The notes below the pieces were generated by a model that made no database searches, had not been told where the DNA came from, and saw only the letters and a program-made list of their open reading frames with translations. Positions 1 to 37,663 of a stretch of DNA of 64,000 bases are shown here, piece by piece. Every line of letters starts with the position of its first letter. Positions within the stretch are counted from its first letter, which is position 1. The DNA is taken from NCBI GenBank assembly GCA_964187785.1, contig OZ076409.1, positions 36,396,001 through 36,460,000 of the forward strand, read 5' to 3'. The DNA is from Amphiscolops sp. MND2022 (Eukaryota). Made by a program: the position numbers and the translations under genes.

Positions 1-651
1 ATATAAACTTTTAACAAGCCGTGAATGGCCCAAGTCGGTGCCCTGCTCGAGGTTGAAAAAGTGCAATGCTTTTTAAGTATGGAAAGGGTTATTATTGTGA
101 AAATTTTAACAATTTTTCCGAACGCAAAAATAGGACACCCAAAAGGGTACCCATCGGGAGACTCATAAAACTCGAAATCCGCTTTTTCCATATAATGAAA
201 ATTTTTTATTCGGATAGGTTTCTTACTGTCGAAATCTCAAAATTAGACCCTTAAAGTTCGCAAAACGTTCTTTTCAATAGTGAGGGAGTACCTTTTTACC
301 AAAAGAAAATTGTTTCTAAAGAAGGTCGCACGGTTGTCAAAAAAAAACGGTTCCGATCAGAAAATTCTCATCAGTCCCACGGGAGCAAAAAATAATCAAA
401 GAGGTGACTCATAAGAAAAACAGAGTGCCGAAAAAAAGCTACAAAGGAGGAAAAGCGCCAACAGGCTAAAGACGGCTCAAGCCGGCAACCTACTTGAGGC
501 TCACAAAACGCAAATGCTTTCAGATTGGTTCCATATCCGTATTTTAGACCAATCAAATTAGTCGCGTAGTGTCGAAGAAATCAAAACGGGATCCTTTGGG
601 CTCTCTTCAGTTCCACGTGGTTCCAGAAAAAAAAGTTCGCGAGAAAATTAC

Positions 652-2552
652 TGTCGCAGGCTGCCGCCTGTGATGGAAATAATTACACTACATCGGCAGG
701 GGAACAAAACTCGACACCAAGAACACTACCAATATACTGAATACAGGCTATGAACTTTAGAAACTTGTCCTTATTCAACGTTAGTTGTTATTTTACGTAT
801 TCATGCAATAGTTTTGTATTTAGATGAAGTTAATATTAGTCCGTTAAAATTGTACAATTTGGAAATATCCAAATTAGGCTACTTTGTAACAGTGTGCAGT
901 TGAAATGTAAATCGTTGAATCAAAAGCAGTACTAATAGAAGCAACTGTAAAGCGGTATAGGAAACGAGTTCAAGTGACGTTCAGCGATAATCCAAAAACG
1001 TCACTTGAGCTCACCTTTCTAACCAATCACAGCGCTTCAATTCACGAGTGCAATATGACTTTGATTTGGTAGTGGCCGAATATGGCCAATTGACTTAATG
1101 TCCACGGATTGTTTTATGCTTTGGTCAAATGGCCGATTTAGGCCGTCTTAACGTAACGAATGATGCTGAATTATTTGTACTCATAATTAACCATATTAGT
1201 TGGGGACTATTCTAGAAGTGCTTTAATATTAAAATAATACCAACGTACCCTTCAACAAGCCAAATGAACCGAGTGCTGATCAAAGGCCGGATAAGGCCTT
1301 TTACCCTTACTCCCCTCAGTATTGTGCTATTAATCAGGATTTGGCCAATTTCGGCCCTTTTAGGAAAAACCCTGTTTTAGTGATGCAATGATATTTAAAT
1401 AGATTGGGCATGTATTATTTGAACTTGCTTCCCCTACGTTGACTTATAGCCACGTGGTAGCACGTGCTAACACTGCATACCAGTGCTACGAGTCTCGCAT
1501 TCCATCAACAAGCTTAACATTTGTTGACATTGCAATAATAATATGTAGCATAGATATGTTGTTTGAAGTACCGTTAAGTGTATTTACCATTATGTCAATT
1601 GTTTGATGTTACATTTCGGGAGACAAATATGTCAGGAATTCTTCCAATCAGGATTTCACAGAAATATGTGATTGATGCTTTCCGATGATATAGAAAATAT
1701 GTAAACAGAGGTTCTTATGGTGCAGATACCTTTCAAAACCATACCTCTTAAATACCAGAGATATGTAAAAATCAAGTGCATTACATACCTTACAATGTCA
1801 ATCTTGGATGAAAATATGTAAAATATGTGAGTGTTACCCACTCAGGGGTATAAATAGTGTTTAGCCTGAGTAGGACACAAAAATCATATTAAACTACTCT
1901 AGAAAAGATTGATCTCCAAACGGCTTCGCTGTTAGTTCCGTATTGATTAATTTATTATTGATTCGGAACTGTTTCAATGCCCACCACTAGAAAGCAAGAA
2001 AGTCAAGAGGACTTAAGATGTTATCTGATATTGAAAATCTGGATATCATGTTAGTTGAGAACCGTTTTGGTACCAGAGAAAGAGAAGGCAGCTTGAATAG
2101 TAATCTACCTAGAAGATCTAGAAGATTTGCAAGTAATGAGTCTGAAAATGAAGACGGAAACATAGGTAGATCCCAGAGAAATATTGACTCTAGGATGAAT
2201 GCCGAATGTGACCGCAATTCTGTCACAGGTAATTCTAGCGCTGAAATAAACAGGTTGTCCAGCGAATTAAATTCTCGTATTTCGCGTGAAATGGACGAGA
2301 TGATGAATTCTGTGAGTGTCCAAATACAAAGAGCCATAAGCGATGCGATAAGAACTCAAGTGCTTCCTCAAATCCAAAATGTCATTATGGCCGGATCAGG
2401 ACATGGGACCAGAAAAGGATGGGACGTTCCGTCTGAGAGACCGCAACCAAATTCTGAAGTTCAGCGAAATCTTAACGCAAAGAGTAGCTTAAGAAATGAA
2501 CAGGATGAGAATCAATTCAACAATGATTACCCTGTCCTAAATGTTCATGACA
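652..2552 (+). repeat. 5' LTR (1901 bp)
   Basis: Near-identical to 14981-16885 (about 30 differences counted by eye). Starts TGTCGC, ends CATGACA. TATA-like GGGGTATAAATA near 1845-1856; paired CACGTG boxes at 1452-1466. Confidence 0.95.
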
Positions 2553-3679
2553 TGGTGACAGGAGACAACGAATCTCCAAATCAGGTTCCTGAGTTTCTCA
2601 CAGGACGTATTCCATCAAGAAGTCATCTCAACCAGTCCTTCGAGGACGTCAACCTTGACACGACGATCCCAGCGCACGAGAGAATTGCTACAACTGCAGA
2701 TCCTGACCCCATTACAAGACTGGCCGACGTCTTGACCACAATGCAAAGTAGACCAACAGCCCAACAACGCACATTACGCCCAGTCAACTCCAACACAATG
2801 ACTTTCGATGGCAAAAGTGAGAAATTCGAGCTGTTTGAAGATCTTTTCCATACCATGATCAAGATGCAGCCAGAAATGACCGAGCAAAAGAAAACTAACC
2901 ATTTTCATTCACTATTGCGGAAGAATGCTCTCCAGACATTCCGAATTATCAATTCGACAAACCGTCAAACTCTTGAAGACGTACTAGTCATTTTCCGACG
3001 GAAATACGTCAAACATGAGTCTCAGGCGACTGCCAAACATAAATGGCACCGTCTGGTCTTTGATCCCAATACGATGAAATTGCCTGACTTCCTTGAAGAG
3101 TTAAATCAAGGGGCAGAAAAGGCATTCGGAGACCATGCGCAGAAGTTGATTGACAGTTTGCTATACGCAAAACTGCCACCAAAACTAAAAAGGTCAGTCA
3201 ATATGGCCAGGCTAGAAAATGGCTCGTATGATGAGATAGTTGCTCATTTGGAGAGAGAGCTGGAGCTTAACGCCCTTGAGGAGTCAGACGATATACCGAT
3301 GGCAACAATGACCTCCTCAACCACTAAGCCCAAAACGTCTCTGTCCACTGGACAAATGTCAGACATCACTTGCAATTACTGCAAGGAAAAGGGCCACATG
3401 GTCAAGGACTGTGAAAAGCTTAAAAAGAAGAAAGAGAAAGACGCCCAACAAGGCAAGCCAACTCAGAAGAAAACATACCCGGAGTATGGCACCTGTGGCA
3501 AAAAGAATCACCCGGAGGAAAGATCTTGGCAAGGCGCCGGTGCACATCTTAAACCCAAACGCACTAGGCCCGAGGACTCATCTGACAAAAAGCCCAACCC
3601 AAAGGCTCAGAAACCTCAGAACAAGCAAACATCATCAAGCTCTCAATCCTCATCTTCTAACGACCAGTCAAAAAACTAA
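2018..3679 (+). CDS. gag: Gag (553 aa), begins inside the 5' LTR
   Basis: Retrotransposon capsid-like segment (TFDGKSEKFELFEDLF), CCHC knuckle CNYCKEKGHMVKDC, and a second decayed knuckle (YGTCGKKNHPEERS). Ends A-AAA-AAC-TAA. Confidence 0.9.
   Translation: MLSDIENLDIMLVENRFGTREREGSLNSNLPRRSRRFASNESENEDGNIGRSQRNIDSRMNAECDRNSVTGNSSAEINRLSSELNSRISREMDEMMNSVSVQIQRAISDAIRTQVLPQIQNVIMAGSGHGTRKGWDVPSERPQPNSEVQRNLNAKSSLRNEQDENQFNNDYPVLNVHDMVTGDNESPNQVPEFLTGRIPSRSHLNQSFEDVNLDTTIPAHERIATTADPDPITRLADVLTTMQSRPTAQQRTLRPVNSNTMTFDGKSEKFELFEDLFHTMIKMQPEMTEQKKTNHFHSLLRKNALQTFRIINSTNRQTLEDVLVIFRRKYVKHESQATAKHKWHRLVFDPNTMKLPDFLEELNQGAEKAFGDHAQKLIDSLLYAKLPPKLKRSVNMARLENGSYDEIVAHLERELELNALEESDDIPMATMTSSTTKPKTSLSTGQMSDITCNYCKEKGHMVKDCEKLKKKKEKDAQQGKPTQKKTYPEYGTCGKKNHPEERSWQGAGAHLKPKRTRPEDSSDKKPNPKAQKPQNKQTSSSSQSSSSNDQSKN
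2553..2564 (+). promoter_or_regulatory. Primer-binding site (tRNA-Leu-like)
   Basis: TGGTGACAGGAG directly after the LTR end; 11/12 match to the complement of a typical tRNA-Leu 3' end (TGGTGTCAGGAG). Lies inside the gag reading frame. Confidence 0.65.
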
Positions 3680-6600
3680 CTTCGCCACGACTCCAGTACA
3701 ACGAACTAATATCTGTCCGACAATACATCAGATCGGACCCTCCAACGCAAACCTTTCATCAATACAATCAGCAATTGATGGGCTATCCTCTATTGTCTGG
3801 CAGCAGCAGATGGAAAAAGCCACCATCATCACCTACAATAACACCCATTTGTTCCAGAAACCAATTCCTGCTTGGGACCCTGACTATACAACCACCTTCA
3901 ATACCCGGTTCAGGCCCATTCCCCTGATCGATGACTACAATCTAACATACATCGATCCAGACTATGGCAGAGATCCCTATTGGGACACCGAGCTATACAA
4001 CCAAGATCAACTGCAATTTCAATATGTCCTAGACGATATTGACCACTATAACAGAACAGTCCACGAGAACCCTCCAATTACCCATAACAAGAAAACACGA
4101 GCACTAATCGAAATCTGGCAAATGAATGATGGTACAAACCATCCAGTGTTCCCAAACCCATTGGGGACCGAGAACCCTGAAAACAGTGGTGAATCCACGC
4201 CACAATCATTATTAGATGAAAAACAATTCCAAAATGTACTCATCGCCAGAGATGGTGAACCAGACTGTATACCCCTGTCAACCAACATCAACCTCAAATG
4301 CAAGAAACGCATGCTTTATTTCCCAATGGATTTTGGGGAACTGACCATTGATGGATTAATAGACACTGGGGCACTGTCCAGTGCAATACCTGAAATGGAC
4401 ATCCGGAAAATCCGCCTCCTATCTCCACAATCTGTTATCCGAGAAGGTCCGCCTCCGAACTTCCAAATCATGGTCGCTAATGGGCAACTGGAAACTCCTA
4501 AGAGTACCATAGAGCTCAAATTCGAAGTTGGTGACACTGAGTTCCATGAAATCTTTATAGTAATGGAACATTTGACAGGACCAATCATTGGACTAATGTT
4601 CCTTCAGAGAAATCATACAGTCTTGGACATGAGACAAGGAATCCTGAATTTCCCGTTCTTTTCAATGCAGCTTAAAACAGCTGATCACAAATATTCCACC
4701 GTTCTAGAACCAATTCTCAACCCCTCTGAGATAACCATTCCGCCCAACGATAGAGTCCTAATTAGGACCAACTCCTTACTGTACCCTGAGAATGCGGTTA
4801 CTGGAATTTTTCAACCGAGCGACCTTCTACATGAAGAAGGCGACATCACATTTTGCCCAGCATTGGTCACTCTGAATGATGGCAATACAATGATACCAGT
4901 GAACAACTTCACAGACCATCCTTACAAACTCAAAAAGGGACTTCATATTGCCAATTTCTCAGTCATGACGCCAGAACAGATGAAATATGTCAAACCGGTA
5001 GATCCGGCATCCACCTGGCATGTTTTACAAAATGACCAAGAGCAGGCAGCCCACTATGTCAGCAGTCTCATCAAGACAAACAGAAACCCTCAAAATTCTG
5101 AAAATTACTGGTTCCCAACTCCAAAAAATCCTGGAAACCCCGAGGAACACACTCCAATACAGAAACGAATTCTACGAGAATTACAGGCCTTACAGGACCT
5201 GGAGACGCTCGACCCCACAAAAGATGAAGAATCGCGTGCAAAATTCCTAGAAAACTTTGATTGGAAAGACTCCACACTTACTCCTGAAGAGAAGGAGAAA
5301 GTCGAGGAACTACTTGTGGAATTCCATGATATATATGCACGACACAGATTTGACATAGGCATGAATGAGGAATTCAAGGTGAAATTGACACCTAAGGACG
5401 ATTCCCCAGCCTATAGCCAAAGCCTACCAGCCCCCATCAACCTGAAGGAGGACATCCTAGTCGAATTGGCCATGTTACACAAATATGGCATAATCACTAC
5501 CCTACCATTCTCGAAATATGCGAGTCCAATATTCGCACAAAAGAAACCGAATGGAAAACTCAGACTCTTGGTTGACTTGAGAAAAATCAACAACCTCATG
5601 TCCGATGATTATATAAACAATAATCACCCTGTCAGTACCTTGGTTGATGCCGCCCAACACTTGGCGGGCAAGAAACTGTTCTGTAAATTAGACTGTTCGC
5701 AGGCATACCACTGCCTGCCGATGGCTGACCAACGATCGATCGAAATGTTGGCTTTCAACTTTGCCAGTCGCACGTTTGCATACAGACGTTTGGCACAAGG
5801 TCTCAGCCGGGCACTGTCCGCATTCTCAAATTTCATGAGGGAATACCTCGACAAAGTCATTAAAGCGGATCAGTGTGCCCAATATGTCGACGATATCGGC
5901 ATCGCGGCCAATGATGCTGATCACCTCATAGCAAACCTGAGAGCTACGTTCAAATGCATTCAGGAAGCAGGCCTTAAGTTAACAATGCACAAATGTCACT
6001 TCGGTGCAAAAGAAATTGATTTTCTCGGACGGACTATTACCCCACAAGGCGTCAAGCCCCGGAAACAAAATGTACAAAACTTTCTGGAGAAAACCAAATT
6101 CCCGAAGTCGAAAAAGGCTTTACAGCGTTATTTGGGATTCTTGAACTACTACAGAAATTATGTCCCAAATCTTTCAGAACGCCTTGCTCCATTCTACAAG
6201 ATGCTGAAAAGTGACGGAAAGGTCCTGGTATCGAAAGAATTGGTCCAACAATTCGAGGAAATTAACAAAGCACTTGACAAATGTTGCGATTTGGCCCTAC
6301 AACAGCCCATTCCAAACAAGCAAATTGCACTAATGACTGACGCAAGCTTTGGAGCAGCCGGATATGCAGTCCTAATTGAAGACGACCCAAATCAGAAATT
6401 CACGTCACTCAGAAGGTCCTATGCACCTGTAGCATACGGATCCAATCTTCACCCCAGCACAGATCAAGATGTCAATTTATGCCCAGGAAATCCTTGCAAT
6501 TTATTTTGCATTCAAAGAATTTGGCCATATCGTCTGGGGTGCGCCCAAACCAGTCATTATCCTAACCGACAACAAAGCTGTAACACGATTTTTCCAAACA

Positions 6601-8879
6601 AAAATAATACCCCCAGCACTCTAGAATGCGTGTGATTTTGTGATCCAATTCAATTTTGTCATAGCGCATATCCTGGGGGCACAAAATACAGCTGCCGACT
6701 ATTTGTCCCGATTGGAAGCAGATCCGAAGGACAAATTAGTGATGAAAATTCGCGAAGATGTACAAACACTACCGATCGAAATCAATGTCCAATCTGCAAG
6801 GGTGTCACAAGAAGAACAAATCTTCTACACCACGACGACGATGAGACAGAAGAACAGTATTGGGCAAGAAAGGAAGCAATCAGGAAAAATCCAGCAACTG
6901 ATGAGCCCACTGTTACCATACAAACTCTGTCAACAAATCTGGTCAAGCAACACCCCGATATACAAGTCCGATTGAGGAAGACGAATCAGATCATTATCGA
7001 ACAATCCAAAGATGCGGTACTACAGCAATTGAAGGCAAAACTGCTTCATGAAGAGTATTCAGAAAATCTGCTGCAACAGGATGCCCGATACAGGCATTAT
7101 GCAAACAATCTGGAACGAATTGTACTGAAGGACGAAATCCTGACAAGGCAATATTTTGATGAAACAGGGAACGTTAAATAACATCAATTTCTGCTCCCAC
7201 AGCACTTACTCCAGGAAATGCTTCAGTCTCTTCAAGGGACGGCCAATAAACATCCTGGCATCTCAAAAATGCTGCAGGAAATCCGACAATGGTATTACTA
7301 CCCTAGCATGGCCAAACACGTCAAAAAATGGGTAGAGGGGTGTGAGGAATGCGCAAGAGACAAGCGAGCCCCCAACGCAACAATTACGCCTGAATTACTC
7401 AACTTGTCCGAATGGGACCTCGGACCTGAGGACGCCATGCAGATCGACCTATTGCCGAATCTTCCCCCAAGTGGTGGGTATGAAAACGTTTTAACAGCAA
7501 TCGATGTATTCTCCAGATATCTGTTCGCCTATCCCCTTACGGACGCATCAGCGATCAATGTAGCAAAAGCAATCTTTGACATCATGACCAAGCATGCATA
7601 TCTACCAACGACTCTCATTACTGACAAAGGTACTGCATTTACTTCTGCAATTATTGCGGAGATTACGCAAATTTTGGGCATAACACTCAAATGTGCAACA
7701 ACAAAACACCCGCAGACGATTGGGAAATTGGAACGAACTCATGCCTCAATGAAAACAAACCTCAAAATGGCATGTGGGGAATATCGCCGACAATGGCACA
7801 AATACTTGCCATTAGCAGTACTGAACCATAATACTAGTTATCACGCCAGCATCGGTTGTGAGCCGACGAGAGTATTCCATGGAAGAATTCCATTTAATAT
7901 CCTGGATCACAAGCTTGGAAACAATCCAAACGAGCAAATCAATCCCACAACCGAATTTGCTGAAGAAATCCAAAATTGGACAAAAATCTTGATTGTCAAA
8001 ACAAAGCAAAACATTATGCAGTCATATATCAAGTACGAAGAATATTATGACCGCAAGGCAAAAGCCGCTCCACTAAAAGAGAATGATTACTGCTTTGTAT
8101 TACAGCCGAAAGCGGATCACCAAGGATCAAAAATTCCATTCCGTGATTATAGGTGGGTCGGACCATTTATAGTCCAAAAAGTTTTACCTAACGAGAATTA
8201 TATTGTACGGCGAATGAATACAAACAAGACTCAAATTTTGCATCGGATTCGCCTTAAAAGGTTTGTCCCCAATCAACCGCTTGAGGACAATTTCCGAGAA
8301 CAGCGGTTACAACCTGACGAGGAAAATATTATTCCACAAGATGATATATACGTCATAACGTGGGAAACCGACTTTGGAGAGCAGCTAGTCACGAGAGGCA
8401 ACGAACCTACTACGACTAGCTTGCCGAACGGCGAACAGCCGAATGCGGCAGAACCGAGGCACAGTGACGTAGACGAGAACGAAAAAGATTACATCATCAC
8501 GAACGACGAAACAAACTACGCTGGAAATACGGCGTACGGCCGGAATGAAAGGTTAAATGATGACGTCACAAAAAGGAATGACGCTAGTGAAGCGACTAGC
8601 AATGAAGAACCTGATTGGCCGAATCCGGCCGTTTACCCAGGAAATCCAGAAAAATCCCCGCCGAATGCGGACAAAAGACTGAAAAATGATAAAAAGTTGC
8701 CTGAAAGAAACTTGACGAATGAAAACGATGCACGAAATTCTCCAAAAAAGGGGGATGATATTATCGTGCCCGAAATATCTGAAAACGATGCTAGAAATGA
8801 AAGTCTGAGCCCTAGAGGAGGGAAATATAATCTCAGACCTAATCCTAACCCAAACTACTCAGAAGACTTCAGATACTAG
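3670..8879 (+). pseudogene. pol: Gypsy pol (protease, RT, RNase H, integrase), disrupted
   Basis: LIDTGA protease (~4362), YVDD RT (5883), LMTDAS RNase H, H..CEEC zinc motif and QID/TDKG/LERTH integrase core. Lesions: frameshift ~6443, TAG 6622, frameshift ~6830, TAA 7179. Confidence 0.95.
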
Positions 8880-9117: not shown

Positions 9118-12100
9118 TTAATCTTTAGAAGTGCCAACAGGAGATTCTTCTACCACAGAGGAAGCCCTAGACCTCGAACTACTCTTTCCCATTCGTCTCC
9201 GTTTACGGTCACTAGGAGGCACGACTGCGGGCATTTCCCCGACACTGTAGGACCCTGTATCATCAAGGCTCCCAGTCCCTTCGCCCACCGCGGAGAAGGC
9301 AGAACGGTATAAAGCAACCAGGGTCTTGTAGATCTTGTTCCTAGCAAATTCGTCGACAAAGGTCCAAGGATCATATGAAGCAGATGAGGCAGACTGACTG
9401 AAAGAAGTAGAAAGGAGAGAGAAATTGGCCAAACTGGAATCGCTAGTACAGAAGGCAATGGAATCTGGAACCCCAGACAGATAACTCTGAGCAGGCAAAA
9501 CCACGTCCACGAGCTGGCTTTGGCAATTTGAAGTACTAATAGATCCAATACTCACAGTAGGGTAATGAGGGCTCTCGGAGGTGATGCACAAACAACTCAG
9601 TTTGAAAAAGTACATTAGATGGCTATGCTCTTGCATGAAGTCAAGGTTAACAAGGAAGTCGATGAGGTCTGGGGACCCTTGACTGACATCCAATGAAGGC
9701 AAAGAAGAAGCTTTAAGTTGGTCCAATAGCTCCACATACTCGTCTCGGCAGGCCGATTCATTCGCAGAACTGACCCAAGACCTTAACTGAAAGGTCCGGT
9801 ATAACAGGTCGAAGTGACGAAGAGCCACCTCGGTGGGCCTTTTCACCATTACGCATGGATCGAAAGCGGCAAGACCCCTGATAAGATTGGAACACAGGCC
9901 AGCTTGGCGAAGGATACCCCCAATCAGGAATTGAAGATAATTCTGGCAATCTTGAACAAAGTCATTCTTGACGGACACAGCAGTCTTCTGGATAGTGCTT
10001 TTGTCAGCCTTCTTCTCAGTAAGCACGCCCTCGGATCTCTGTTTACTGGCCTTGGTGACCTTGTTTTTCATATTCAGTCTTGTGAGGAATTCGTCAACTG
10101 GTAAAATTGTCCCTTCGCTGGTTTGGAAATTCAAAAGTAGAAACCATGAATTTTCAAGTGGGATGGTGTCCGAAGTGTAACAACGAAAGCAGAGTTTGTA
10201 GATATAGCGGGCGACCTCCCCGCAAAGATAGAAGGATGAATCTCTCCTCTTCTGCAAATTAGTGGTGAAGCTAGAGTTGTCTAAACATAGGACACTAACG
10301 CATATCAGTTCAAAAGGAATAACCCTGGCTTATCCTAATATACTAACAATCACTGATGAGGTGATAGAAGAATTCGAGCTTCACGGGGAAGAATTCATCA
10401 CAGATGAGCAAACCACTCAAAACTCTGAACCTGGAACAAATAGGAGTATTGACGGACCTATGATATTCTCCCCTTTGACAAAAGGAACTGGACCAAGATG
10501 GGATTACTTACTCTTGTCCTGACTCCCTGGCCCTGCTGTTTGGCAGAGTGCAAAGTGAGGAAGGAAACCACAAACTTCCACTCGTCCATAAGTTCCTGGC
10601 ACAAGACAGGCAGTGTGGAGAGCTCCAGATCACTCTTAGAAATCGCCTAAAAGAAACACGAAACGATCAAACGACAAGGCTTGAAAACTCTGACTGATAT
10701 AAACTTGTTCTGACGCCAAGACAATAGAAATCACTTACTTTAGCTAGAACGGGGCTGCGCTGTACCCAGTCCTCATTTGCTGATCCGCCCAAGGAAATGA
10801 CCAGGACACGGAGTACCGAAAAGAAGTCTATGTGCCCAAAAACACTGTAGCTGCTTTTGTGCATTAGTTTCGACAAATTGAGCCGAGAGAACCTGAAGCA
10901 ACTCTGGACAGCTCGCACGGAAGTAGGGACCTCGTCAATGGTCCGGATTAGCTCAGACGGGCATCCGGAACAAGCCACTATATCTGCTTTTGTAGATATG
11001 GACAATAACAGGCGTGCCAAGGAGCCTAGTTCTCCAGTGAGGTTAGTCGTGGGTAGACCACTACGGCAAACGATGACTTTGCATAGGTACTGGCCTTTCC
11101 AGAACCTCGCCGACATGAAACGGTTGGGTCCCTGGTCCTCGAATTCCAAAGCAAAGCACTGCAGGGTAGAGATCTGATCAGCAATGTCGCTCATGGCACA
11201 GTTGAAGAGATGTTGGAATATGACCTAGAAAAAAAACCAAGAGTACAACCACTTAGGGAAGGGAGATAAACTCGAGGAAGAGGAAAGCAAAAGATACTTA
11301 CAGTCATTCTATCTTCTCCCCAGTCAAAGTCACAGAGAGAAGCTTGGTGGTCAGTGAATGAGCTGATTTTGGCCCACATGCTTCGGAGGATTGCAATGTC
11401 TCCATGGCTCTGGATGAAATCTGCCACCATGCTTAGCTGGGTTCGCGCGCGAGACTCGGGGGATATTAAAGGGGTAGTCCTGCCCCGCACGAAATCCTCG
11501 TAAAAGGGGAAACGTTCCCCAATATCAACCAACTCCACGTTCATAAATTTGGGGAGTTCCTTAGCTAGCTCCATCTTGCTCAAAATCTTTCCGTTCCTGC
11601 CTCGGACGCGGTGTTGGGTTTTGAGTGTGACGGAATCGGTACTTTTCAAATGTTCGTACCGCCATCTCTGGTCTCGTCTAAGATGCCTTTCAGTCCGATG
11701 GTGCCTGAGAATTTCCATTGTCCCTTCACTCCGAATGGAAAAGTTTTTCTTGCAGATATGACACCAGACCATATATGGGTTGTGGATTGGATCTGCCGGA
11801 CCTGAAATGAAAGACCGAGTCCACCCTATTTTAGCGAAGAACTCCTCTCGCATTGGGACCCCGCGTTGAGACTGTCTCTTAGCCTTTGGTGTCTTCTTGG
11901 GCTGAGTTTTACTTTTGGCCTTTAGTGTCTGTTCCTTCACCTCGGACAAGGTAATATCCTGGCTGCTCCGATCAGTTTCTTGGCTGCCCTGTTGCAAGAC
12001 GTCAGGCTGTGCCGTGGTCGAAATGATCTGGATTGGGGCCTTGAAGGTGGCAGAAATTAGGGCCATTTCACCAGCGCTATCACTCTTTCCAAACGAGGAG

Positions 12101-13008
12101 GAATCGCCTAAGCCTCCATAGTCAGTGATGGCCTGGTCTTCTGAGTCGATGAAGGGCGAGTCGCCTGTTTCAGCGTCACTTGAGTCACTGTCTACACACC
12201 TAAAGGGAGTCTGCGCTCGTGACTTAAAATGACTGGTTCGCGAAGGAGCAATTGTTGGCCTACCTCGAACAGCGTCCAAAATCATCCGTTCCATTGTGCT
12301 ATGGGACATTCGGAGTGTTTCATCGGTCAAGACACGCAATAGATGGTACACTTGGGACTCCGTGAAGGTGACTGCTGTTTGTCCTGGTGGGATCCGGAAG
12401 GCGTTTGTCTCATCGAAATAAGTTTTCAAAATAGCCCGTGCTCGACCAGAAAGTTCAGAAGGCTGTGAATCAGTACCCCGAGAAGTGGATGCAACCTTTC
12501 CAGGCTGTTGTTGCTGGCTGAGGATGGTTATGTCAGGATGGTCACTAGTTTCAGCCCCGGATTCGGATATCCCGGGGATACCTCCGTATAGGGAAGGGCA
12601 ACCGCCACTGCTTGTCTCCTCGGTTGTCTTCTCTCCCTCACTGAAATCAGCCAGGAATCGCACCTTGGGCTCATGCGTGGGCAACATGGGAGCCTCATAT
12701 ACGGAAGACTCGCAATCTTCATCATCAACCAACTCTCCAATCTTTGAAGCGGCAGCCTCAACTTGTACAGCAGGAAGAAGCTCAGATAGCTGGGATTCGG
12801 GATTATTGACAACCATTAACCCTGATTCCAAAGCATTTAGGCTAGTTTGTGACGCACCTGCTGCATCAATCAGTATTGGGGTGCTGGACCGGACTGGGAC
12901 TAGAGACAGGGGAGTTTGGTCTCCAGTGGGAGTTTCAGTACTGGTCGTGGTCATGGTATGATCCACAGAAGTTGGCTGTTCTTGTGACTGAGGTCTTTCA
13001 GCCTCCAT
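9118..13008 (-). CDS. Antisense five-exon cargo gene, ~1,190 aa BED-finger / hAT-transposase-like protein (one 1-nt lesion)
   Basis: Exons 13008-11302, 11224-10739, 10646-10512, 10430-10348, 10280-9118. Introns of 77, 92, 81 and 67 nt with GTAAGT (x3) or GTTAGT donors and pyrimidine-rich YAG acceptors. Splicing joins three computed ORFs in frame, except one extra base near exon 4. Zinc finger WCHIC...RHHRTERH. Confidence 0.8.
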
Positions 13009-14310
13009 TTCGCGTACTTGGCCTCTGCATATATGTTCACATCCTCACTTTCAACGCTTGGAGGGGAAGTCTCAGATCTGATGACACTTGTTGTATTTGG
13101 AACAACACCTCCTTCAGGAACTGTCTGGAGTAATCCGGAGGGGTTTGATGTAGTCCCAACTTCCAAAGTCTGATTATCAAAATAGAAAGAGATAAAATTG
13201 AGCGGTATGCTTCCTTAGAAAGAATCCATTTTACCGCGTTAAAAATCTTCCGGAAGTGATTCGAAAATTGAATGAAGCGTGTTTTCACGTGTTTAATTGT
13301 TGGAAACAGGAAGCGTTATGTGAACGATGTTTGGCCCTGATCAAGCTAAACTTGTTCAAAAGAAAAATGAGGAAGTCAGACCAACCTGGATTACAAGACA
13401 TGTTTTGTGGTGATGTCCGTACGGCAACAGTCCAACGTGGGATGATAGAAGCGTAAGAAGTTGGTCAAACTCGGCTTGAAGATGGAGACCTGGGATACTC
13501 CGACGAAGTGGGAGAACAAGGATGAGAAAGGAGCCGGATAGGGACGAGTAGTAGTCAATTAGATGTGAAGGATGAAACAAATAAACAACGAATTGGAATG
13601 GAATTGAAATAGGGTAAAGCAATTGGAAAATTGGAGTTCGTGGCAGAAGAAATTACCAGACTAATATTATTTGATTATTTACATATTTAAAATTGTGCAT
13701 GGAATCTGCCAGTGAAATGTACAACGACCTCTTCATTATTTACAGTTTACTTACTCAGTGGCCATTTACTGCCGGTTACCCTGTTTTGTTTCACCGTTTT
13801 GTTCAGTTGCCGTGGTTACCTTCAATAGGAATTTTCGCCATTTTGGAATTATTTAGATTTTTATTTGTCGCCATTTTATTATTCTTTTTTCAAATTATCG
13901 AAGCTTGGCTCTGATTGGTTGAAGCCATTACGAGAAATTTTGGTGACGCGTGCCGTTAATTGCTTACAAGCGACCCGTTAATTACCCACTTGAGACTGGT
14001 GTAGTTGATATTAATAATTCAAGCGTCATTCACACCTCTCATAGTGACGATGCTGATGAGGGGTAAACACTGAAATATCAAAGGGTGCCGACTAGTCATG
14101 AAATTCCATTCAGGAAAGTTTACGACGGATCAGGACGACCAACCGAAGTTTTAACCGTCACATTGGAAACTTCGGGGAAACACCTTACTCGGCTAAATTC
14201 TTGGATCTGATAAATTCATTCTACCCTAAACTTCATCACGATCCAGTTGCATCTACAAGCTTCAAAATAGCGAAAAAAGCCATCATGAGGGAATACAATC
14301 TCGCAAGAAG

Positions 14311-15069
14311 TTGTTTGACTTAGAAGAATTCGACTCGGATGGCTCTGAGAAATCTGTAATCTACATATCAAGCAGCGAGAGCGAAGCGTCGGACTGGGAG
14401 ACGGATTGTTCCACCGACACGGAGCAGCTGATAGCGCGGATAGAGAGAGAAGTAACATCTAGCCCTATGCTCATTGGGGGCAGGGTAATGACATCGGAGA
14501 AACCAGAAGAAGATGTGTCAGTGGCTGGACCAAGTACTTCTGGTGCAAATGCTGAAAAGTCGCCAAAAATGGACCATAAGTACTTTGACCTAGAAAGGTG
14601 CTATGCTCCCCCTAAGAGGATGGAAAAGTCACGCATCGAACTATGCAATACAATCTTGCCAGCCCTAGAGTCCCCGATGTCGCCACCAGACTATGAAAGG
14701 GGACCGAGTCAAGATACCCCTCTAGTCCAGCCATCAATGAACGGGTTCTATGCGTCCTACCACATCCAAAACACCAGGCCCTATGACAATCTGAGCAGTC
14801 AGAGATACACTGGGTGCATGGTGTGTGGGAAAACAGTGGACTTGATTAAAGACGAGAAGATCAATTGGTATATGGAGAGATCAACGCCGCGCGGAGAACC
14901 CGAATTTGTCATCAAACTGAGACGAGAAGCCTACATAAACGGACTGAATGCAGGTAGTCTACTTTTCATTGCTCCCGCAGTGTCGCAGGCTGCCGCCTGT
15001 GACGGAAATAATTACACTACATCGGCAGGGGAACAAAACTCGACACCAAGAACACTACTAATGTACTGA
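14311..15069 (+). CDS. Orphan cargo ORF (252 aa) ending inside the 3' LTR
   Basis: Long open frame with an acidic/Ser-rich N-terminus and a CMVC motif. The last 89 nt are LTR sequence. Start uncertain (TTG; out-of-frame ATG at 14285). Confidence 0.6.
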   Translation: MFDLEEFDSDGSEKSVIYISSSESEASDWETDCSTDTEQLIARIEREVTSSPMLIGGRVMTSEKPEEDVSVAGPSTSGANAEKSPKMDHKYFDLERCYAPPKRMEKSRIELCNTILPALESPMSPPDYERGPSQDTPLVQPSMNGFYASYHIQNTRPYDNLSSQRYTGCMVCGKTVDLIKDEKINWYMERSTPRGEPEFVIKLRREAYINGLNAGSLLFIAPAVSQAAACDGNNYTTSAGEQNSTPRTLLMY

Positions 15070-16885
15070 ATACAGGCTATGAACTTTAGAAACTTGTCCT
15101 TATTCAACGTTAGTTGTTATTTTACGTATTCATGTAATAGTTTTGTATTTAGATGAAGTTAAAATTAGTCCGTTAAAATTGTACAATTTGGAAATATCCA
15201 AATTAGGCTACTTTGTAACAGTGTGCAGTTGAAATGTAAATCGTTGAATCAAAAGCAGTACTAATAGAAGCAACTGTAAAGCGGTATAGGAAACGAGTTC
15301 AAGTGACGTTCAGCGATAATCCAAAAACGTCACTTGAGCTCACCTTTCTAACCAATCACAGCGCTTCAATTCACGAGTGCAATATGACTTTGATTTGGTA
15401 GTGGCCGAATATGGCCAATTGACTTAATGTCCACGGATTGTTTTATGCTTTGGTCAAATGGCCGATTTAGGCAGTCTTAACGTAACGAATGATGCTGAAT
15501 TATTTGTACTCATAATTAACCATATTAGTTGGGGACTATTCTAGAAGTGCTTTAATATTAAAATAATACCAACGTACCCTTCAACAAACCAAATGAACCG
15601 AGCGCTGATCAAAGGCCGGATAAGGCCTTTTACCCTTACTCCCCTCAGTATTGTGCTATTAATCAGGATTTGGCCAATTTCGGCCCTTTTAGGAAAAACC
15701 CTGTTTTAGTGATGCAATGATGTTTAAATAGATTGGGCATGTATTATTTGAATTTGCTTCCCCCTACGTTGACCTATAGCCACGTGGTAGCACGTGCTAA
15801 CACTGCATACCAGTGCTACGAGTCTCGCATTCCATCAACAAGCTTAACATTTGTTGACATTGCAATAATAATATGTAGCATAGATATGTTGTTTGAAGTA
15901 CCGTTAAGTGTATTTACCATTATGTCAATTGTTTGATGTTACATTTCGGGAGACAAATATGTCAGGAATTCTCCCAATCAGGATTTCACAGAAATATGTG
16001 ATTGATGCTTTCCGTTGATATAGAAAATATGTAAACAGAGGTTCTTATGGTGCAGATACCTTTCAAAACCATACCTGTTGAATACCAGAGATATGTAAAA
16101 ATCAAGTGCATTACATAGCTTACAATGTCAATCTTGGATGAAAATATGTAAAATATGTGAGTGTCACCCACTCAGGGGTATAAATACCGGTGTTTAGCCT
16201 GAGTAGGACACAAAAATCATATTAAACTACTCTAGAAAAGATTGATCTCCAAACGGCTTCGCTGTTATTTCCGTATTGATTAATTTATTATTGATTCGGA
16301 ACTGTTTCAATGCCCACCACTAGAAAGCAAGAAAGTCAAGAGGACTTAAAATGTTATCTGATATTGAAAATCTGGATATCATGTTAGGTGAGAACCATTT
16401 TGGTACCAGAGAAAGAGAAGGCAGCTTGAATAGTAATCCACCTTGAAGATCTAGAAGATTTGCAAGTAATGAGTCTGAAAATGAAGACGGAAACATAGGT
16501 AGATCCCAGAGAAATATTGACTCTAGGATGAATGCCGAATGTGACCGCAATTCTGTCACAGGTAATTCTAGCGCTGAAATAAACAGGTTGTCCAGCGATT
16601 TAAATTCTCGTATTTCGCGTGAAATGGACGAGATGATGAATTCTGTGAGTGTCCAAATACAAAGAGCCATAAGCGATGCGATAAGTACTCAAGTGCTTCC
16701 TCAAATCCAAAATGTCATTAAGGCCGGATCAGGACATGGGACCAGAAAAGGATGGGACGTTCCGTCTGAGAGACCGGAACCAAATTCTGAAGTTCAGCGA
16801 AATCTTAACGCAAAGAGTAGCTTAAGAAATGAACAGGATGAGAATCAATTGAACAATGATTACCCTGACCTAAATGTTCATGACA
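14981..16885 (+). repeat. 3' LTR (1905 bp), contains a dead copy of the gag 5' end
   Basis: Matches 652-2552. The gag-like frame from 16351 is interrupted by TGA at 16444. Followed by the ATTAC TSD. Confidence 0.95.
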
Positions 16886-18797
16886 ATTACTAAACTTTTA
16901 TCTCGTAGTTTTAAAGAAGTTCAAAAATACTTAGGACCCTTAGAATGTGGGTTAGACTTCTTACTTGACGTAAGGCTTTGTACTAAGAAGCTGAACAAAA
17001 AGTAACTAGTCTTTTTAGAAGTTTGCTTTTTTCAGTAAGGGCCGACTAAACCCACGTGGAGGAAAATGACCTCCTGCATAGTGCCGAATTTTATCGCATT
17101 TCAGAAGAAAACACACCTTCTAAAACATTTCCTCTTCAACAACTGCATAATGAAATTTTCAGTTGGGTTGCACTTTTTTCAAACATCTCCTCAGCCACAA
17201 TAAAGAGCTTCAGAGGACTCCTAGCTGCCATACGAATCACATTAAAATAGAAATTTGATTATTATGTTGAATCAACATGTGGAAACTAAAAATTCAGAAT
17301 AAATTTTTTCAGGCTCTTTGATTTCTTGGATGTAATCAACAAAAAGGACGTTCTGCAGTCAAATGGCCACGATAATTTAGTTTACTCTCAGTGAGTAACT
17401 GGTCAAATCCTGTTTACCGAGATTTAGCCGGAGAAAAATGGGTCAGGTAATTGCTGTTAAATTTGTTTAAAATGTATCGGATACTTGGTATTTACTAATA
17501 ATTGTTTAAACCCGATTTTTTCCAGAACCTTATAACTTCGTGAAAGTGACTCGCCAAACAAGCAATTAAACGAGTAAGTCAAGAAACAAATCTAGATAAT
17601 AAGTCTCTCCTCTGCAGAAGAGTCGTTTCCTTTTTGGGAATTGCTCCTCCTTTCAATCAATTTTAAAAACGGGGCGGAAATTCTGCCATTCATACAGGAA
17701 GTTCGATTTTTTTGCGAAATAGCAGCATGTCTGCGAAGTTGATTATACAGGGATGATCAACTCCGCTGGAAAGTGTTGGGCGAGAGAAGAAAGAGCAGAG
17801 CTAAGACCATGTGCTACTAGGCAGAGTGTTATTCTGCACAGTCGGGGTTACTTTCAGAGATTATAAGGAGTTAGAACAGAGTAAAATAAAAAAAAGAGGT
17901 GAAGCCATTAATTCTTGGAGACAACATAAAATTTGGGTGCATCGCCCGGAAATTGTCGACATTTGCCTTCTTTTGCTCTCTCTTTATTAGCGGGGAATCA
18001 ATTTACAATCACCCGCACATGGCTCTGAATTTTGCAAGGGTTTTTTGATCTAGTACTCTTTTAATCGCATTAAATCGAAATTATTGCAGTTTTCTCCCGG
18101 ATCTCGTTTCCCCTCTTTTCCCGGCTGTGAGCGGAAACGAACGAAATGCTGTTTAACTTTCACACATCACTGCCCAAAATGTAACGCGATCGGTAACTTT
18201 TATTGTATTTGTCAGACAGTCATCAAACAGTGGAAACCAGTTAACGTCTCCAGAGATTCGTGGGCGTGGTTGAAGACATCTTCAACGGACGGGTACAGAC
18301 CTGAATTGGGTAGATTATCCTGACCATCTAGCTCCTTATCTTTACAGCACATACGTCCGAGGATAGCCACCATTACGCTTCCTTATCTCAAATTTCACCC
18401 ATTGGGAGTCTTATACGCAGGTTAATTATACCTCGCAGAAACTGGCTAAAGGAGATACGCCTAAAATAGTACAATTCCTTGTACTAGTCAAAATCCACAT
18501 CGTTTTAAAATTCCAGCAAACATCTCTACTTGACTAAAATTTTTTGGACACTGATAATATTCGGCTGAAGAAATGTCGGATTGGTTGATCGACTGACCGA
18601 AAAGATACTGGATTAGCCGAGGTGCACATTGCAGATTACATTGCAGATTTAATTTGCACACACAACAATAGACCAAAGCAATTTGACTCTAATTATATGA
18701 CCGTCGTAAATCAATGACAAAAGACAGAGACTGAGTTTACTAGCACGAAAACAGCAGCAGACTATTGGAGCAAAAGAGAATATCTTGAGGGGCGAGG

Positions 18798-19162: not shown

Positions 19163-22100
19163 TTCAATAAATCAGAGGGCATAAATTACAGACAATATTT
19201 TAAATTAAACATAGAGAATTTACAATGCAGGCCCTGAAAAGGACCCCTAAATGCACTTGGCTTTTCAAGAGGGATCTTTATTAATGGACTTTATTATACA
19301 TTTGTTTTTTTTGTGTGTATGGTGGTAGAGATTTCACATGTAGTACTCAGTTTTTATTTACTTGTAAATGAGATTGATCAGTTCTTTCTAGCCGGAAATG
19401 TCAATTTTTGAATGTTCACGATCGGTTCAACTAACAATGTCAAATGGCCAAAAGTTGTAAAACAAGCGGGGAACGGCCCAAGTCGGCGCCACATCTAAGG
19501 CTCAAAAATAGCAAAAGGAGTTCAAAGTGTCAAGTATTTTCTTTTACAGTACCCGAAAAACCCAAAAATTGGACCGAATTGGCGCGCTAAAAGGAACCAT
19601 TTGGGATTTTTCAACATTTCTGTCGCAAAACATCAACAAAATTGAAGGTGGACCCTTTAGTGAAAAAAATCCGAAAAAAATCCCACAATGCCAAAAAACT
19701 GGAAGTGTGGACCCTTTGGAATTTTTTAACGTCCATTCTATCGCAAAACATCAAAAAATTGAAAGGGGGACCTTTTGGTTAAAAAAATTCGAAAAAAGTC
19801 CCACAATGCCGGAAAAAACTGGAAACCCTTTAAATCCCGCCCGGTATTGTATGTTACGCAAATAAAAAAGAAAAAACCATTTTGGTTCAGTTCGCTAGGC
19901 CAAATGGTTCAATTTGACACCATAAAATTTCGTAGAACTTTCAAGAACTATTTTGGTCTGTTCGTGTAGATTGAAGCGTCGACTTCATGAAGCGTCGACT
20001 AAAAACGTATCACGAACTCTGATTTTAAAAAAGGTGTATTGATTGGTTTTATTTCCAAATATATATCGTCTTTCACGTATGCTAAACTGTACCCTGTGGT
20101 TGTGCAGCAGCTACATGCAGACTGATTCGACGTCCATCTTCTACTTCTACATGTTCATAGCAGTGTTGGGTGTCTCCTTGAATGGCACGGTGGCGGGGGT
20201 GATATTGTACAACAAGAGGATGCGCATAGTGCCCAACATGTTCATCCTCAACCTGACCATCTCTGACCTCTTGTTCTGTCTGGGAATGCCGCTCATTGTT
20301 CACTCCACCACAGTGCACAAGTGGACGCTCGGAGTATTCCTCTGCAAAATCGCAAACGGTGAGTCACTTCATTCGTTAAGTAAACAAAATAATCCAAACC
20401 TGGCACACGATTTGCTGAAATTTACAAGCTTGGTGCTACATAAGTCCAGAAAAAATAACAGTAATCTTGAATAACACCGTTAGAAAAGCATCGACTTTTA
20501 AAAAATTTGGAGAATTCAGCCTAGAATTTCCCATCACAGTATTATAAAATATGTGTTATAATACTCACACTAAAAAACCTCATTTTAGCTTCGTTACAGT
20601 TTTATATTCATGGAAGACTAAAATATCTATTTCCAGATCTGAAGTAAAGAAGCTTCCATCCGTTTTACTATACGGAACAAAATTACCATCACACTTCCAT
20701 GCGATGACAAACATGGGACCATGGCATCCATGGCATCCATGGCAATTGTATACGTTTCTGTACACGTTGGAAGTTGTATGAAGCTTTACCGTTTCTATGG
20801 AATCATATTGTTTCGATTATAATTAACTGATTAGGAACCGTATGTTTCTATGCATAACGTCTATGGATTTATGGATTTACGGCAATCAATGCAAGATTGT
20901 AATTACAATGTACTCAAAGGCGCATTTCTGATGTGAATAATATCGTAAACTTGGTGCTTCTGTTCCTCTTTAGGTTTGAAAGCTCCACAGCAAAGCAACC
21001 TGTTCAATTTGGGCATCCCAATTTCTTAATATTTCGCCTGAAAAGAACACAAGTGTTGTACTTGAAAATTTGAAGCTGCGTTCTAAAGCGTTTTAAAGGT
21101 CCAATCTTTGAGAGTACTAAAATTTGTGTTTTGATTGGTTCACTCAGACGAAAATTTGTGAAAATAGTTTCTAGAGTTTGAATCTCATGAGTTACCCCGA
21201 TCCTAGGCACCATGGTTCCATTGGAAGATTTCACACCATTTCCAAACATGGAATTGTTGGAACAATATGGTTCCATGCATGAAATTGCATGGATTTTAGA
21301 CATGATTAATAAATTCATTTTGATGAATTAATCGATAAATTATTTCGTTCTATGAATTATTACAATATAACTATATACAACATTACTACGACATTCCCCA
21401 ACTAAACAGCTTGCATCCACCAAGGACACAATGTTTACACTACGTAAGCTTCGATTACTCAGAAACATTTCTAATTAACCCGGAGCAAATTTCTATAAAG
21501 CAAACGGTGATAGGGTGTACGTATAGCCGCCCGATAATAAGGCAGAAACAATTTATAGCAGAAACGAATTAAATTCTCGTTTGTGATTAGTCGCTCCATT
21601 CGACAGTGAGCTTTATGAACTTTCGACAATGATCAAACTATTACGTAACTTTGCAACCGACCGTAGTAAATGTAAAACAATGCATGCAAACTTTTCTACA
21701 ATAGTGTAAGAAAAAAACTGAACCTTTATTTGTAAAAATGAATTGGACAAACAAAACTAGCTATGATTTCCGCTATCATCCAAGATATTTGAACATCAAA
21801 TAAACAAACATTCTGAAGTTTTCGTGGGCAATTGAAATGTAGTTTGTTGTTTGCAAATATCGTTTGAAATTGTTGATTGGAATTGTTGTTTGCAAATAAG
21901 GAAGAACTTCCTAATTTCATTTTTCGTTGATTGCTTCCGAATTGGCATATGGGACATCATTTTAGAAAATTTTGTAACATTTGGCACCGTAATTTGTATC
22001 TTTCGTTTATTTGGTATATTTGGCAGGTACTTCTTCATTTCCTGAAGACATTCAACTGTTTTACATTACAATTGGCATTATATAGCTTTTGATGAGTGGT

Positions 22101-25100
22101 TTCAACTATTTCATATCATTTACTATCTTAATAGGTGAGATACGGCTCTATTCTTCGCAAAGATTGAGGATTATGTTTTCGGCCTCATATTTTCTACCAA
22201 TTTTCTATCGAGAATCTGCTAATTAGGGCGACTGTATTTATAGTTTTAAACATTCAATTGGTCTTTCCAGTCCAATAAATATATCAGTGAAATAGAAAAT
22301 GAACAAAATCCCCATGTACAATGCTAGCTTTGTTTACATGCAGTCCAAACATCAAATTGCAGTAACATTCTGTTCGTCACTTTGAAACAAAATAGGCGCG
22401 ACGGCATGTCGCGTTTGACTTCGAGCAGAAACGTTCGATGCTAGAATAACAAAAACTTTGATGGTGAAAAACTAGCCTACATTTTGCCGTATTTCTGCGA
22501 ACGAATAGTTTCTGTAGCTATTTTCAGTTACTATCTGTTGTCCTCGAAATATCAGCTTCAAATTGGGAAAAACTCGGATAACTTTTTCCAACTTTTTCAT
22601 GGTCTCCGGATTTAGTCTTGGTTCTGGGATATAGGAGCTTGAGTATAAAAGAACTATGAAAAAACGAAAAAAAATCAAGTATTTTGGCAGGAAAGCGAAG
22701 GCGTCATACTTCATGACGGAAACTTCCATGGTACAAAAACTAGTTTTCCGTGGCGTACCTTGTGAAGGAGAATGATTCCGATCTAGTTTCAGTTTTGAGA
22801 AATATGAGCTACAAGTTGGAAAAAATTCACACTGTTCTTTCATCCCTTTTTTGCTCATAAAAACTGATGAAAATTTTTTTATGTCATTTCCGGCGAAAAT
22901 TTAGCCTACGGAACCATTGTACAATTTACGAAACCATGGACTCCGTATTTGGTTTCGGTTCTGAGATTTAGCAGAGAAGTATAAAAGAACAGAAAAACGA
23001 AGGCATCATACTTGATGCCGGAAACTTTGATGGTACAAAAACTAGCCTACATCCTTGCCTCACTTCGTGAGGGAGACAGGTTTTCGTATCTGTTTTCAGT
23101 TTTGAGAAAAATAAGCTTCAAATTGGAAAAAATACAGACCGTTTTTTCATCGTTTTTTCCCAAAGATAATGAAAAATTTTTGACGTCATTTTCAGGCTAA
23201 CATAGCTAACGTAGCCTACGAAATGGTTGCAAATTTCACGAAACATTGGATTGTGTTCGTTTTCAGTTCTGAATTCACAGGGGATCAAAGAAGGAAGACT
23301 TCGAAACTTTCAGAAATTTGCAAAAAAAGTGAAGTCGATTTTCTTTCAATTTTTTGCCGGCAAAAATGTAGCCAAGAATTTGCACAACTTTTAGCGAAAA
23401 CATGGTATCTATGTCTATTCTCGGTTTTGAGAAATTTGCCTCACAAGTATGAAAAAAGCACATTTTTGCAAAGCTCGAAGCCCCAATAACTCATTAGCGA
23501 CGGCTACATAGATGTCAACTGAATGATTAAAATAGAATCTCGCAACTTGAACAGTGACGAACCTACAAAAAAGGTCTCCTAGAAGTTATAAACACAATTT
23601 TAGAAACATTTTGATGAAGTGGTTCTAAAAACTTGATCACGATCAAAGTGAAAAAATATATACTTGAACAACGGCTCCGCTGTATTGAGAACAAACGACC
23701 CATTTATAATATGTGGATACTGAAGATTTTGAAATTGAACTGTACGAACCCAAATTGATCATAGTCATGCTTTGTCTCGGAAAAAATATATATTTCAAAA
23801 AGAATAAAACTCATCATAGTCAACAATGGGTGTAGTTTTCGACTGTGTTTTTCGGACACTCGCTACTATGACCACTGCAACTAAATAATTTGCTTCTAGA
23901 ACATTTGATACTATTGGCCTATTGCTACTAAGCAAATTGCCACTAATTTGGCGCAACTACGTAGTAACCAATAAAATCATTCAGTGAATCATGAACACAA
24001 TCAAGTTTGCTTGAATTTGCCATATTTTTTCTGAAAATTACAGGTTGAATAGGTCCTAACATGCTACAGAAGGATACAACGATGGATTTTTCTCTGTTTT
24101 AAGACTCAGCATGAAAGAAGTTGACTAGTCGTGACATAGTTAACAGCAGGCTAGAATTAGTAACAAACTACCTAGAATCAAATGTCGTAGTAACAAACAT
24201 CCTGTAAGTGTTTTCAGAACTACTATCTAAAACTTGCATGACGCAAATATGATTACAATGACTTACGATACACCATCAAAAAAGTATAATATTATACTAG
24301 TATTCGGAAACATCAAGATATTTTCAAATTCTGGAATAAGTCATATCATTTTATGGAATCCAATATAAAGTACCCTATGGTTCTATATGGAATCGCATGG
24401 AATTCCAGAATTCCAAGTCGCGTTAGCTGCCGGCATCCATGAGAATAATCCGGCGCAAATTTATTAATCTATGATGGCTGAATTTTGGGGCTTAGCTGCA
24501 GCTTTTATTGTTTTAGGTCTATTCAGGCTTACCATTGTGGTTCTCCTTGGTTTAATTAAACAAAACGAAAAGTATCACTGTACCATTCTTTCTAAGGCTG
24601 ATATGATAAATTTGATGTTTCTTACCCCGAAAACATATTTCCTTCAAATTTAATGACGAGTCCCAAAAATAGCAAAGATTTCAGGTCTGAAAAACGTTAT
24701 TCAATTCAAGACATGACATTTTAAGACGTGAGATTGCTGAACTTTGACGTCATTATCAGTGATATTTCGGTTGTGCTAACAGGTATCGATGCACTGAACC
24801 AGTTCACGGGTATCTTCACCATAGTGATGATGTCGATTGAGAGATACATGGCCATTGTACATTGCATGCGTGCAGTCAACTTCAGGATGCGCACCATGAA
24901 GGGTTGTCTGACCAACATAGCCCTTGTCTGGCTCATCGCTACCGTGATCACCCAGCCAGCGTGGTTCACTGCCGACGTCGAGACCATTAATGGCAAGACC
25001 ATGTGTCACCTCGCTATGGGCGAATTTGGGTGAGCTGCAGTTTCGAAAGCACTTTAATAGTCATAATAAATCTTTTGAAACCCCTAGAAAAGGAAGTAAA

Positions 25101-36800: not shown

Positions 36801-37663
36801 TGAATTTTTATATGTGGCAGCTACTCTGAAAATATAATTCTGGTGTTGTGTGAACTGTCACAAGTGGTGGGGCAAAACCGTTAAGATGTAGATATAAAAC
36901 TTATTGAAAAAAATCTCGATTCTCAACCAGAATTGCTCTCGATTCTCGACTATTTCTCGGAAACTCTGATGACCGGACCATTCTTGCTAGCACAGCCCAA
37001 AATGCCAAGTGCCCATCAGAAAGTCTACCAATCTTGTCAAAGACTTGCCTGTCTTCAGAACCTTGTAAGACAAAAGAAGAAAGTTTGAACGTTATTCCAG
37101 ACACCTCCGATCAGATGTTGAGATGTGATCGCCTTTGCAACACTGAACCTAAATTCAGTAGATATGGAGAGGTGTGCAAATCCAATCCAGCTCAGCCCGG
37201 TTCAAGGACTTTGCAGCAAAAAGATTGGCTCTTCCTTTAGGGGAGATGTCGCCTCGTCTCCTATATAATCTAACATCGTATGTTATAATCTTATGTTTAT
37301 GTTAATTTGCATGATCAGTGCCCTCAATGTTATGGACTTCAATTGAATCTTTGATGCAATGATTTCCTCTTGTCTAGAGATACGACACTCAGCTGTTCCA
37401 ATCAAAAAATGGTGAGATTTCTTAAATTCTGTTCAAATGAACATCATGCAATTAATCTAAAGTTAACCAAAAGTTCATTTCGTCATTCATTCGTTTATTC
37501 ACTCATGATTCGTTATCTGTACACATTTGTTAGCTCTTTCATAGTTTTTGTGAATTTCTCTATGTTCATTTTTGTGCGGCAAAACGAGTTTGTTCATACA
37601 ATTGAATTCAAAACTCTAATCAAAGCTCTTCCAACATTAGAAAGCAGTACTTACAATATTTTT

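Follow-up and report, generated by a model that had tools for sequence, protein, structure and literature searches.

The lentiviral nef ORF runs into U3, and its product has an N-terminal Met-Gly that is myristoylated. Foamy viruses likewise have a non-env gene, encoding Tas/Bel1, beside the 3' LTR; in the portions of the reports available, Tas acts on an internal promoter as well as on the LTR (PMC517496, PMC4929722). For LTR retrotransposons of animals, few non-envelope accessory proteins have a known function. CERV, from Cer1 of C. elegans, is a novel non-env regulatory protein which the available part of its description (PMC10309623) presents as phospho-regulated, nuclear, produced from a spliced mRNA, and an export factor for Cer1 RNA. 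Plants and rotifers already provide examples of extra ORFs located downstream of pol and before the 3' LTR: in the accessible sections of those accounts, plant Retand/Grande elements and bdelloid elements with ORF3s have a long pol-to-3' LTR region carrying conserved additional ORFs, some antisense, which encode TRP28, env-like, GDSL or DEDDy proteins and none of which is described there as crossing the LTR edge.

The locus considered here, part of a 64,000-nt stretch of DNA analysed as a whole ("the window"), resembles each of these systems in some respects and differs in others. As in nef, the ORF enters U3 and the attachment site is coding; unlike Nef, the family lacks a Met-Gly start and homology to it (by Pfam and PDB sequence search), and no polypurine tract lies inside the ORF. 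It shares with Tas/Bel1 its place beside the 3' LTR and has a candidate internal promoter upstream, whereas Pfam gave no sequence similarity and the host is an env-less Ty3/gypsy element. The likeness to CERV, drawn from the partial description only, is that of a novel non-env protein in an animal LTR retrotransposon; the spliced mRNA and the RNA export function are points of difference. The long interval with extra ORFs, one of them antisense, recalls the plant and bdelloid elements, whose protein types have no Pfam match here. Finally, a hydrophobic core followed by Ser and acidic residues, in an acidic disordered region, is also a feature of HCMV IE2 and of the phospho-SIM proteins PML, Daxx and PIAS, as far as the sources at hand describe them; these proteins are unrelated to the family, the resemblance is one of motif alone, and SUMO binding here is a prediction. 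In the literature outside subscription journals, Repbase-type libraries and supplements, no description of this accessory family was found.

Host element and reading frame

The ORF is carried by a 16.2-kb Ty3/gypsy retrotransposon with TG..CA LTR ends, a target-site duplication, a primer-binding site (presumably of tRNA-Leu type) and pol domains in the expected order (Table 1). Its LTRs are 98.3% identical, with 29 mismatches and 4 gap positions. A segment at about 4560-4800, between protease and RT, looks to us like a degenerate dUTPase-type fold, for which Pfam gave no match. Because some 180 codons of gag fall within the LTR (1991-2552), the 3' LTR likewise contains part of gag (16320-16893), interrupted in this copy by an internal stop.

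Table 1. Coordinates of the retrotransposon and its features within the window
Feature	Position	Strand	Remarks
TSD ATTAC, left	647..651		same 5-mer as 16886-16890
5' LTR	652..2552	+	TGTC...GACA ends; TATAAA 1849, AATAAA 2245
Terminal hairpin, 5' LTR copy	653..674	+	z -3.5
gag frame with CCHC knuckle, starting within 5' LTR	1991..3679	+	zf-CCHC E 0.003, below cutoff
PBS TGGTGACAGGAG	2553..2564	+
pol, PR-RT-RH-IN (Ty3/gypsy), split over several frames	3312..8879	+
First cargo: antisense gene, three open frames	9118..13044	-
Candidate internal promoter motifs TGATTGG and CCACTTGA	13912..13993	+	same order in L001 and L002
Family-type start codon, here opening a 12-codon frame	14285..14323	+
Accessory gene body	14305..15069	+	92% identity to P0002 residues 8-261
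SIM-like VIYI, then SSSESE	14356..14385	+
Candidate zinc ligands: Cys 14644, SPxSP, His 14761, CxxC 14815-14826	14644..14826	+
Helical hairpin, pLDDT 86-94; helix 2, with RR plus A-x3-G-x3-G, forms the interface of the dimer model	14836..14958	+
Pyrimidine-rich stretch at expected place of polypurine tract	14951..14980	+
3' LTR	14981..16885	+
9-bp hairpin, first bases of U3, read as SQAAACD	14982..15003	+
TSD ATTAC, right	16886..16890

The interval between pol and the 3' LTR contains the studied ORF and an antisense gene, the two being divergent and separated by a 1.2-kb spacer. The antisense gene has GT..AG intron-like gaps (e.g., near 11300-11225) and a finger-like CxxC...H...H motif, which we take to resemble BED fingers. 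It had no family match in Pfam and a best E of 0.4 in PDB, and none of 325 candidates, which were longer proteins only and thus a weak search, proved to be a relative.

The studied frame runs open across 14230-15069, a stop-to-stop length of 279 codons. The original prediction had given a product of 252 aa, a length that needs revision: position 14311 is a TTG, and the first in-frame ATG, at 14467, would leave 200 aa. Intact relatives are about 261 aa long and start at the counterpart of ATG 14285, which here lies in another frame and reads MREYNLARSCLT up to a stop. Since this family-type ATG is out of frame with the ORF body, the frame is broken, at about 14306-14311 and directly before the start proposed earlier, and the copy is decayed. 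Other points of the earlier description agree with what was found: the N-terminus is acidic, His and the CMVC residues are present, and a TM segment is absent (hydropathy over 19 residues reaches 1.35 at most). The 3' LTR begins at 14981 and the ORF, having read across this position, ends at 15069, 89 nt inside U3, and therefore the terminal TGTC is coding; the gag frame also covers the end of the 5' LTR, so that both internal LTR junctions are overlapped by ORFs. Missing from that description were the frame break, the junction hairpin as the strongest conservation, and the absence of a polypurine tract. About 29 codons at the end of the ORF lie within U3. Comparison of the two LTRs over the 89-nt overlap shows 3 differences, and for two of these the family-type residue is found in the 5' LTR and not in the 3' LTR; this fits drift after insertion.

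Gene family and selection

Relatives of the ORF are numerous. The first protein search returned 199 clusters among 712 candidates at E ≤ 0.01; 120 clusters among the matches listed comprise 1,756 member sequences, all of them unnamed ENA proteins. Lengths in the family are about 256-285 aa, with a mode of 256-262 aa among the matches listed, and the closest relative (P0002) is 92% identical over 14305-15066. Among 50%-identity representatives there were 240 matches at E ≤ 0.001, and a profile search found 330 among 6,207 candidates; full-length members of 260-285 aa extend to 27-35% identity, several in clusters of 16 to 128 members. Motif counts given below are for 152 of 190 proteins of 245-300 aa, 38 having been left out (the window's own, and those without the CxxC or SQ motif), and for 22 distant representatives below 60% identity. 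DNA of relatives came from two metagenome contigs of 1.3 kb each, L001 and L002 (2 of 197 stretches in an alignment scan). A single-protein scan of JGI metagenomes confirmed 0 of 43 stretches, GTDB genomes gave 0 of 33, and viral contigs had no match to the junction pattern. With contigs of this length, the link of the accessory ORF with gag and pol is seen in the studied window only.

Pairwise comparison of the window, L001 and L002 over a 58-codon core gave identities at codon positions 1/2/3 of 29/39/18, 29/37/11 and 34/42/19. Because second positions are kept while third positions are near random, this codon comparison shows selection on the core at the protein level, with silent sites saturated. 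Between 58 and 88% identity, mismatches are also more conservative than neutral ones (mean BLOSUM -0.12 to +0.38 vs -0.43 to -0.63); at 27-35% identity no such excess over neutral is seen (0.20-0.30 vs 0.21-0.25). Many subfamilies thus keep the ORF with a coding substitution pattern, the reverse of the lack of conservation that the original prediction had named as counting against it. Its proposal of a selected accessory gene in a nef- or bel-like position stands on this conservation; kinship with Nef does not, the likeness being one of position alone. The ORF is almost certainly an accessory gene of long standing in a single Ty3/gypsy lineage, represented here by a decayed copy.

The LTR junction

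Conservation is most striking where the gene crosses into the LTR. In 196 proteins bearing the motif SQAAACDG, the preceding residue is Val in 179, Leu in 16 and Met in 1. All three can be encoded as N-T-G, as would be expected if the first TG of the LTR is fixed in that codon; the missing Ile is supportive and not unique, since 1 of 5 other Val-rich columns likewise has none. The sequence TGTCGCAGGCTGCCGCC is common to the DNA of L001 and L002 at the junction, and the junction DNAs are alike nearly letter for letter, silent sites included (6, 7 and 5 of 8 third positions). Throughout the family, the codon in which the LTR begins seems to be the same one, a register that is well supported.

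The U3 terminus forms a 9-bp hairpin starting at LTR base 2 (z -3.65 on 30 nt). Its stem pairs are kept in 27 of 27 cells across three sequences; there are two changes only, both from G-C to G-U, and none is two-sided. Conservation of this terminal hairpin is well supported. The most invariant peptide, SQAAACDG, is therefore largely the reading of a sense-strand element at the LTR end with a presumptive cis role. Downstream of the hairpin, one pair (9/9/1 of 16) seems to return to a coding pattern, and the other two do not clearly do so.

No polypurine tract was found at the 3' LTR of the studied copy, where no purine run of 7 or more occurs after about 14880. At the same place L001 has a run of 7 purines and L002 one of 5, each behind a T-rich stretch and ahead of the hairpin (the whole region being 1170-1210 in L001, 1165-1215 in L002 and 14951-15003 in the window). 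Loss or reduction of the polypurine tract, together with a hairpin at the LTR start, may indicate an unusual start of plus-strand synthesis.

Protein anatomy, candidate functions and the rest of the window

AlphaFold2 predicts a mostly disordered chain (mean pLDDT 55.6 and 63.0) with one confident helical hairpin (pLDDT 83-94). Median net charge over the first 60 residues is -13. An SPxSP motif is present in 21 of the 22 distant representatives, Cys in 148 and His in 150 of the 152 full-length proteins (a set for which CxxC was itself a filter), and the CxxC Cys pair is invariant in the 79 rows of A6. These conserved residues are candidate zinc ligands, and the protein would probably bind zinc. 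Searches for known relatives were negative: Pfam gave nothing significant for the window ORF, 16 A3 members or 10 further proteins (best E 0.004, for 1 of the 16), the A3 profile had no match by sequence in PDB, and Foldseek, with low-confidence models, had none at E ≤ 0.001 in either PDB or BFVD. VIA wide reached Z 4.7 at best, with generic helical hairpins, and the best ESM Atlas scores (0.88 and 0.85), with a minority PiggyBac label, are a lead only, no match standing. Other motif candidates were set aside: a cyclin-docking RxLF at the N-terminus, found in 96 of the 152 proteins but in 3 of the 22 representatives and hence not family-wide; a classical NLS, with K[KR]x[KR] seen in 2 of those 22; and a SUMOylation site and dileucine patterns, not conserved across the family.

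A homodimer model, built without an alignment, scored 0.66, the best of 3 controls scoring 0.13; contact agreement between runs was at least 51% and pLDDT at least 48. In calibration on microbial structures, 21 of 30 solved pairs passed the mark used for dimers, as did 0 of 23 single chains; for eukaryotes the figures were 17 of 29 for pairs and 0 of 30 for single chains, with a pass for only 1 of 7 pairs that lacked an older solved relative. The partner's fold is uncertain (pLDDT about 49). The modelled interface is the second helix, in which conservation over 79 aligned rows extends to 76 for A125, 73 for G129 and 75 for G133. As a prediction, this supports self-association of the protein.

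In the acidic N-terminal arm, a SIM pattern (a hydrophobic core, then Ser or acidic residues) occurs in 135 of the 152 full-length proteins, in 15 of the 22 representatives below 60% identity (shuffled control: mean 1.3, maximum 5), and in both L001 and L002. The motif, a loose one of four residues, matches a SIM description in the available part of PMC12751080. The motif is lost in one deep, fully supported clade, where 9 of 10 rows show a pattern in reverse orientation; the reverse pattern was formulated once the sequences had been inspected, and it represents a single evolutionary event. Upstream of the gene, TGATTGG (13912-13918, a reverse CCAAT box) and CCACTTGA (13986-13993) keep their order 250-455 nt before the ATG in three DNAs. 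The upstream regions share 9 7-mers, many of them AT-rich, against a shuffled mean of 3.0 (2 of 200), while the 8-mer CCACTTGA alone is not significant (59 of 200 shuffles). These are modest hints, from three sequences, of an internal promoter between the two divergent genes.

The reading we favor, with a probability of roughly 40%, is that the gene encodes a dimeric, probably zinc-binding nuclear regulator whose acidic arms would bind SUMO, thereby countering silencing or activating the LTR. Intact copies would use an internal promoter, lying between the accessory and antisense genes, to make a short transcript that runs to the poly(A) site of the LTR. The encoded protein would dimerise through its C-terminal helix, probably bind zinc, and display acidic arms with a phospho-SIM-type motif; by binding SUMOylated chromatin factors these could compete with SUMO-dependent silencing or recruit activators, and the element would stay transcribed, by a logic like that of CMV IE2 or foamy-virus Tas. 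There is precedent for both ends of this scheme in the sections of two sources available: phosphorylation of the IE2 SIM by CK2 raises transactivation (10.1101/655282), and piRNA silencing involves SUMO/SIM-dependent recruitment of SetDB1/Wde (10.1101/533091). The acidic disordered arm, the SIM pattern and the candidate internal promoter together fit a nuclear regulator of the Tas/IE2 kind better than Nef. Counting against a nuclear SUMO-binding regulator are the absence of a conserved NLS, the looseness of the motif, and the fact that no DNA-binding fold was recognised.

Another possibility, an unlikely one, is an RNA factor of the Rev/CERV kind, with the basic helix of the dimer binding the U3 hairpin in genomic RNA for export or packaging. 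An RR or RK pair does precede A-[FYL] in 22 of 22 representatives, and tolerance of G-C to G-U changes in the hairpin fits pairing in the sense strand; CERV itself, as far as its available description goes (PMC10309623), is a precedent. The C-terminal domain, however, is net acidic (median -2), the basic residues sit within the modelled dimer interface, and the SIM pattern is left unexplained. Less likely again is a role at the cDNA ends, in which the hairpin, substituting for a full polypurine tract, would mark the plus-strand start or the U3 end and the protein would aid priming or integration. The want of a purine tract here, the runs of 5-7 purines in L001 and L002, and a hairpin beginning at LTR base 2 with conserved silent sites are all as this would have it; but the hairpin could work for the element without the protein, for which no fold of a nuclease, a primase or a nucleic-acid binder was recognised, and the acidic arm and SIM pattern point to chromatin.

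The location across the 3' LTR edge, the acidic cluster and a proline-rich stretch would also suit a cytoplasmic or membrane adaptor modulating host trafficking or immunity, as Nef does, yet this is very improbable in a family with a Met-Gly start in 0 of 152 proteins, dileucine motifs in 5 of 22 representatives and no Pfam similarity. Slimmer still are the prospects of an envelope substitute, i.e., a fusogen like sORF2 or the FAST proteins serving cell-to-cell spread. An uncharged stretch of 24 residues with A-x3-G-x3-G near the C-terminus invites the comparison, as does the sORF2 precedent in the accessible part of 10.1101/2025.03.14.642691; among relatives, however, E, K, R and D are common in that stretch, and hydropathy has a median of 1.31, with 1 of 152 full-length relatives just above the value of 1.6 for a TM segment. 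A chance open frame, maintained by DNA-level constraints only, is almost certainly wrong: its most invariant motif is indeed nucleotide-constrained and the studied copy is broken, but third positions of the core are saturated while second positions are conserved, and multi-member full-length clusters exist at 25-35% identity, where neutral drift would be expected to leave 9-12 stops per frame (the databases contain called ORFs only, which inflates the apparent openness of frames). Functions outside all of these readings are somewhat unlikely.

A more specific form of the nuclear regulator reading is doubtful: that this animal Ty3/gypsy lineage has long encoded a counter-silencing protein of its own, which would bind SUMO and act in dimeric form as a SIM decoy against the SUMO-SetDB1 arm of transposon silencing, with its gene locked onto a terminal U3 hairpin that replaces the polypurine tract, and that this helps it to very high copy number. 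If true, a SUMO decoy encoded by a retrotransposon would bear on how elements persist under piRNA/SetDB1 silencing. The family is in any case an old and large one, unnamed and under selection. A separate question comes with a high-copy lineage in which the terminal hairpin is conserved and the polypurine tract is vanishing: how is the plus strand primed?

The remainder of the window appears, from translations, to hold animal-type genes. A rhodopsin-type receptor gene in exon-like pieces is recognisable in translation at 20043-27458 (+). At 32000-41600, three tandem gag-like fragments with a spacing of about 2.64 kb are each followed by pol pieces of Bel/Pao appearance, also judged from translations. 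At 48144-50084 (+) there is an intronless frame of 646 codons, which we take to resemble selenoprotein O; its stop comes directly after ...SIRVT, and a Cys/Sec tail might come next.
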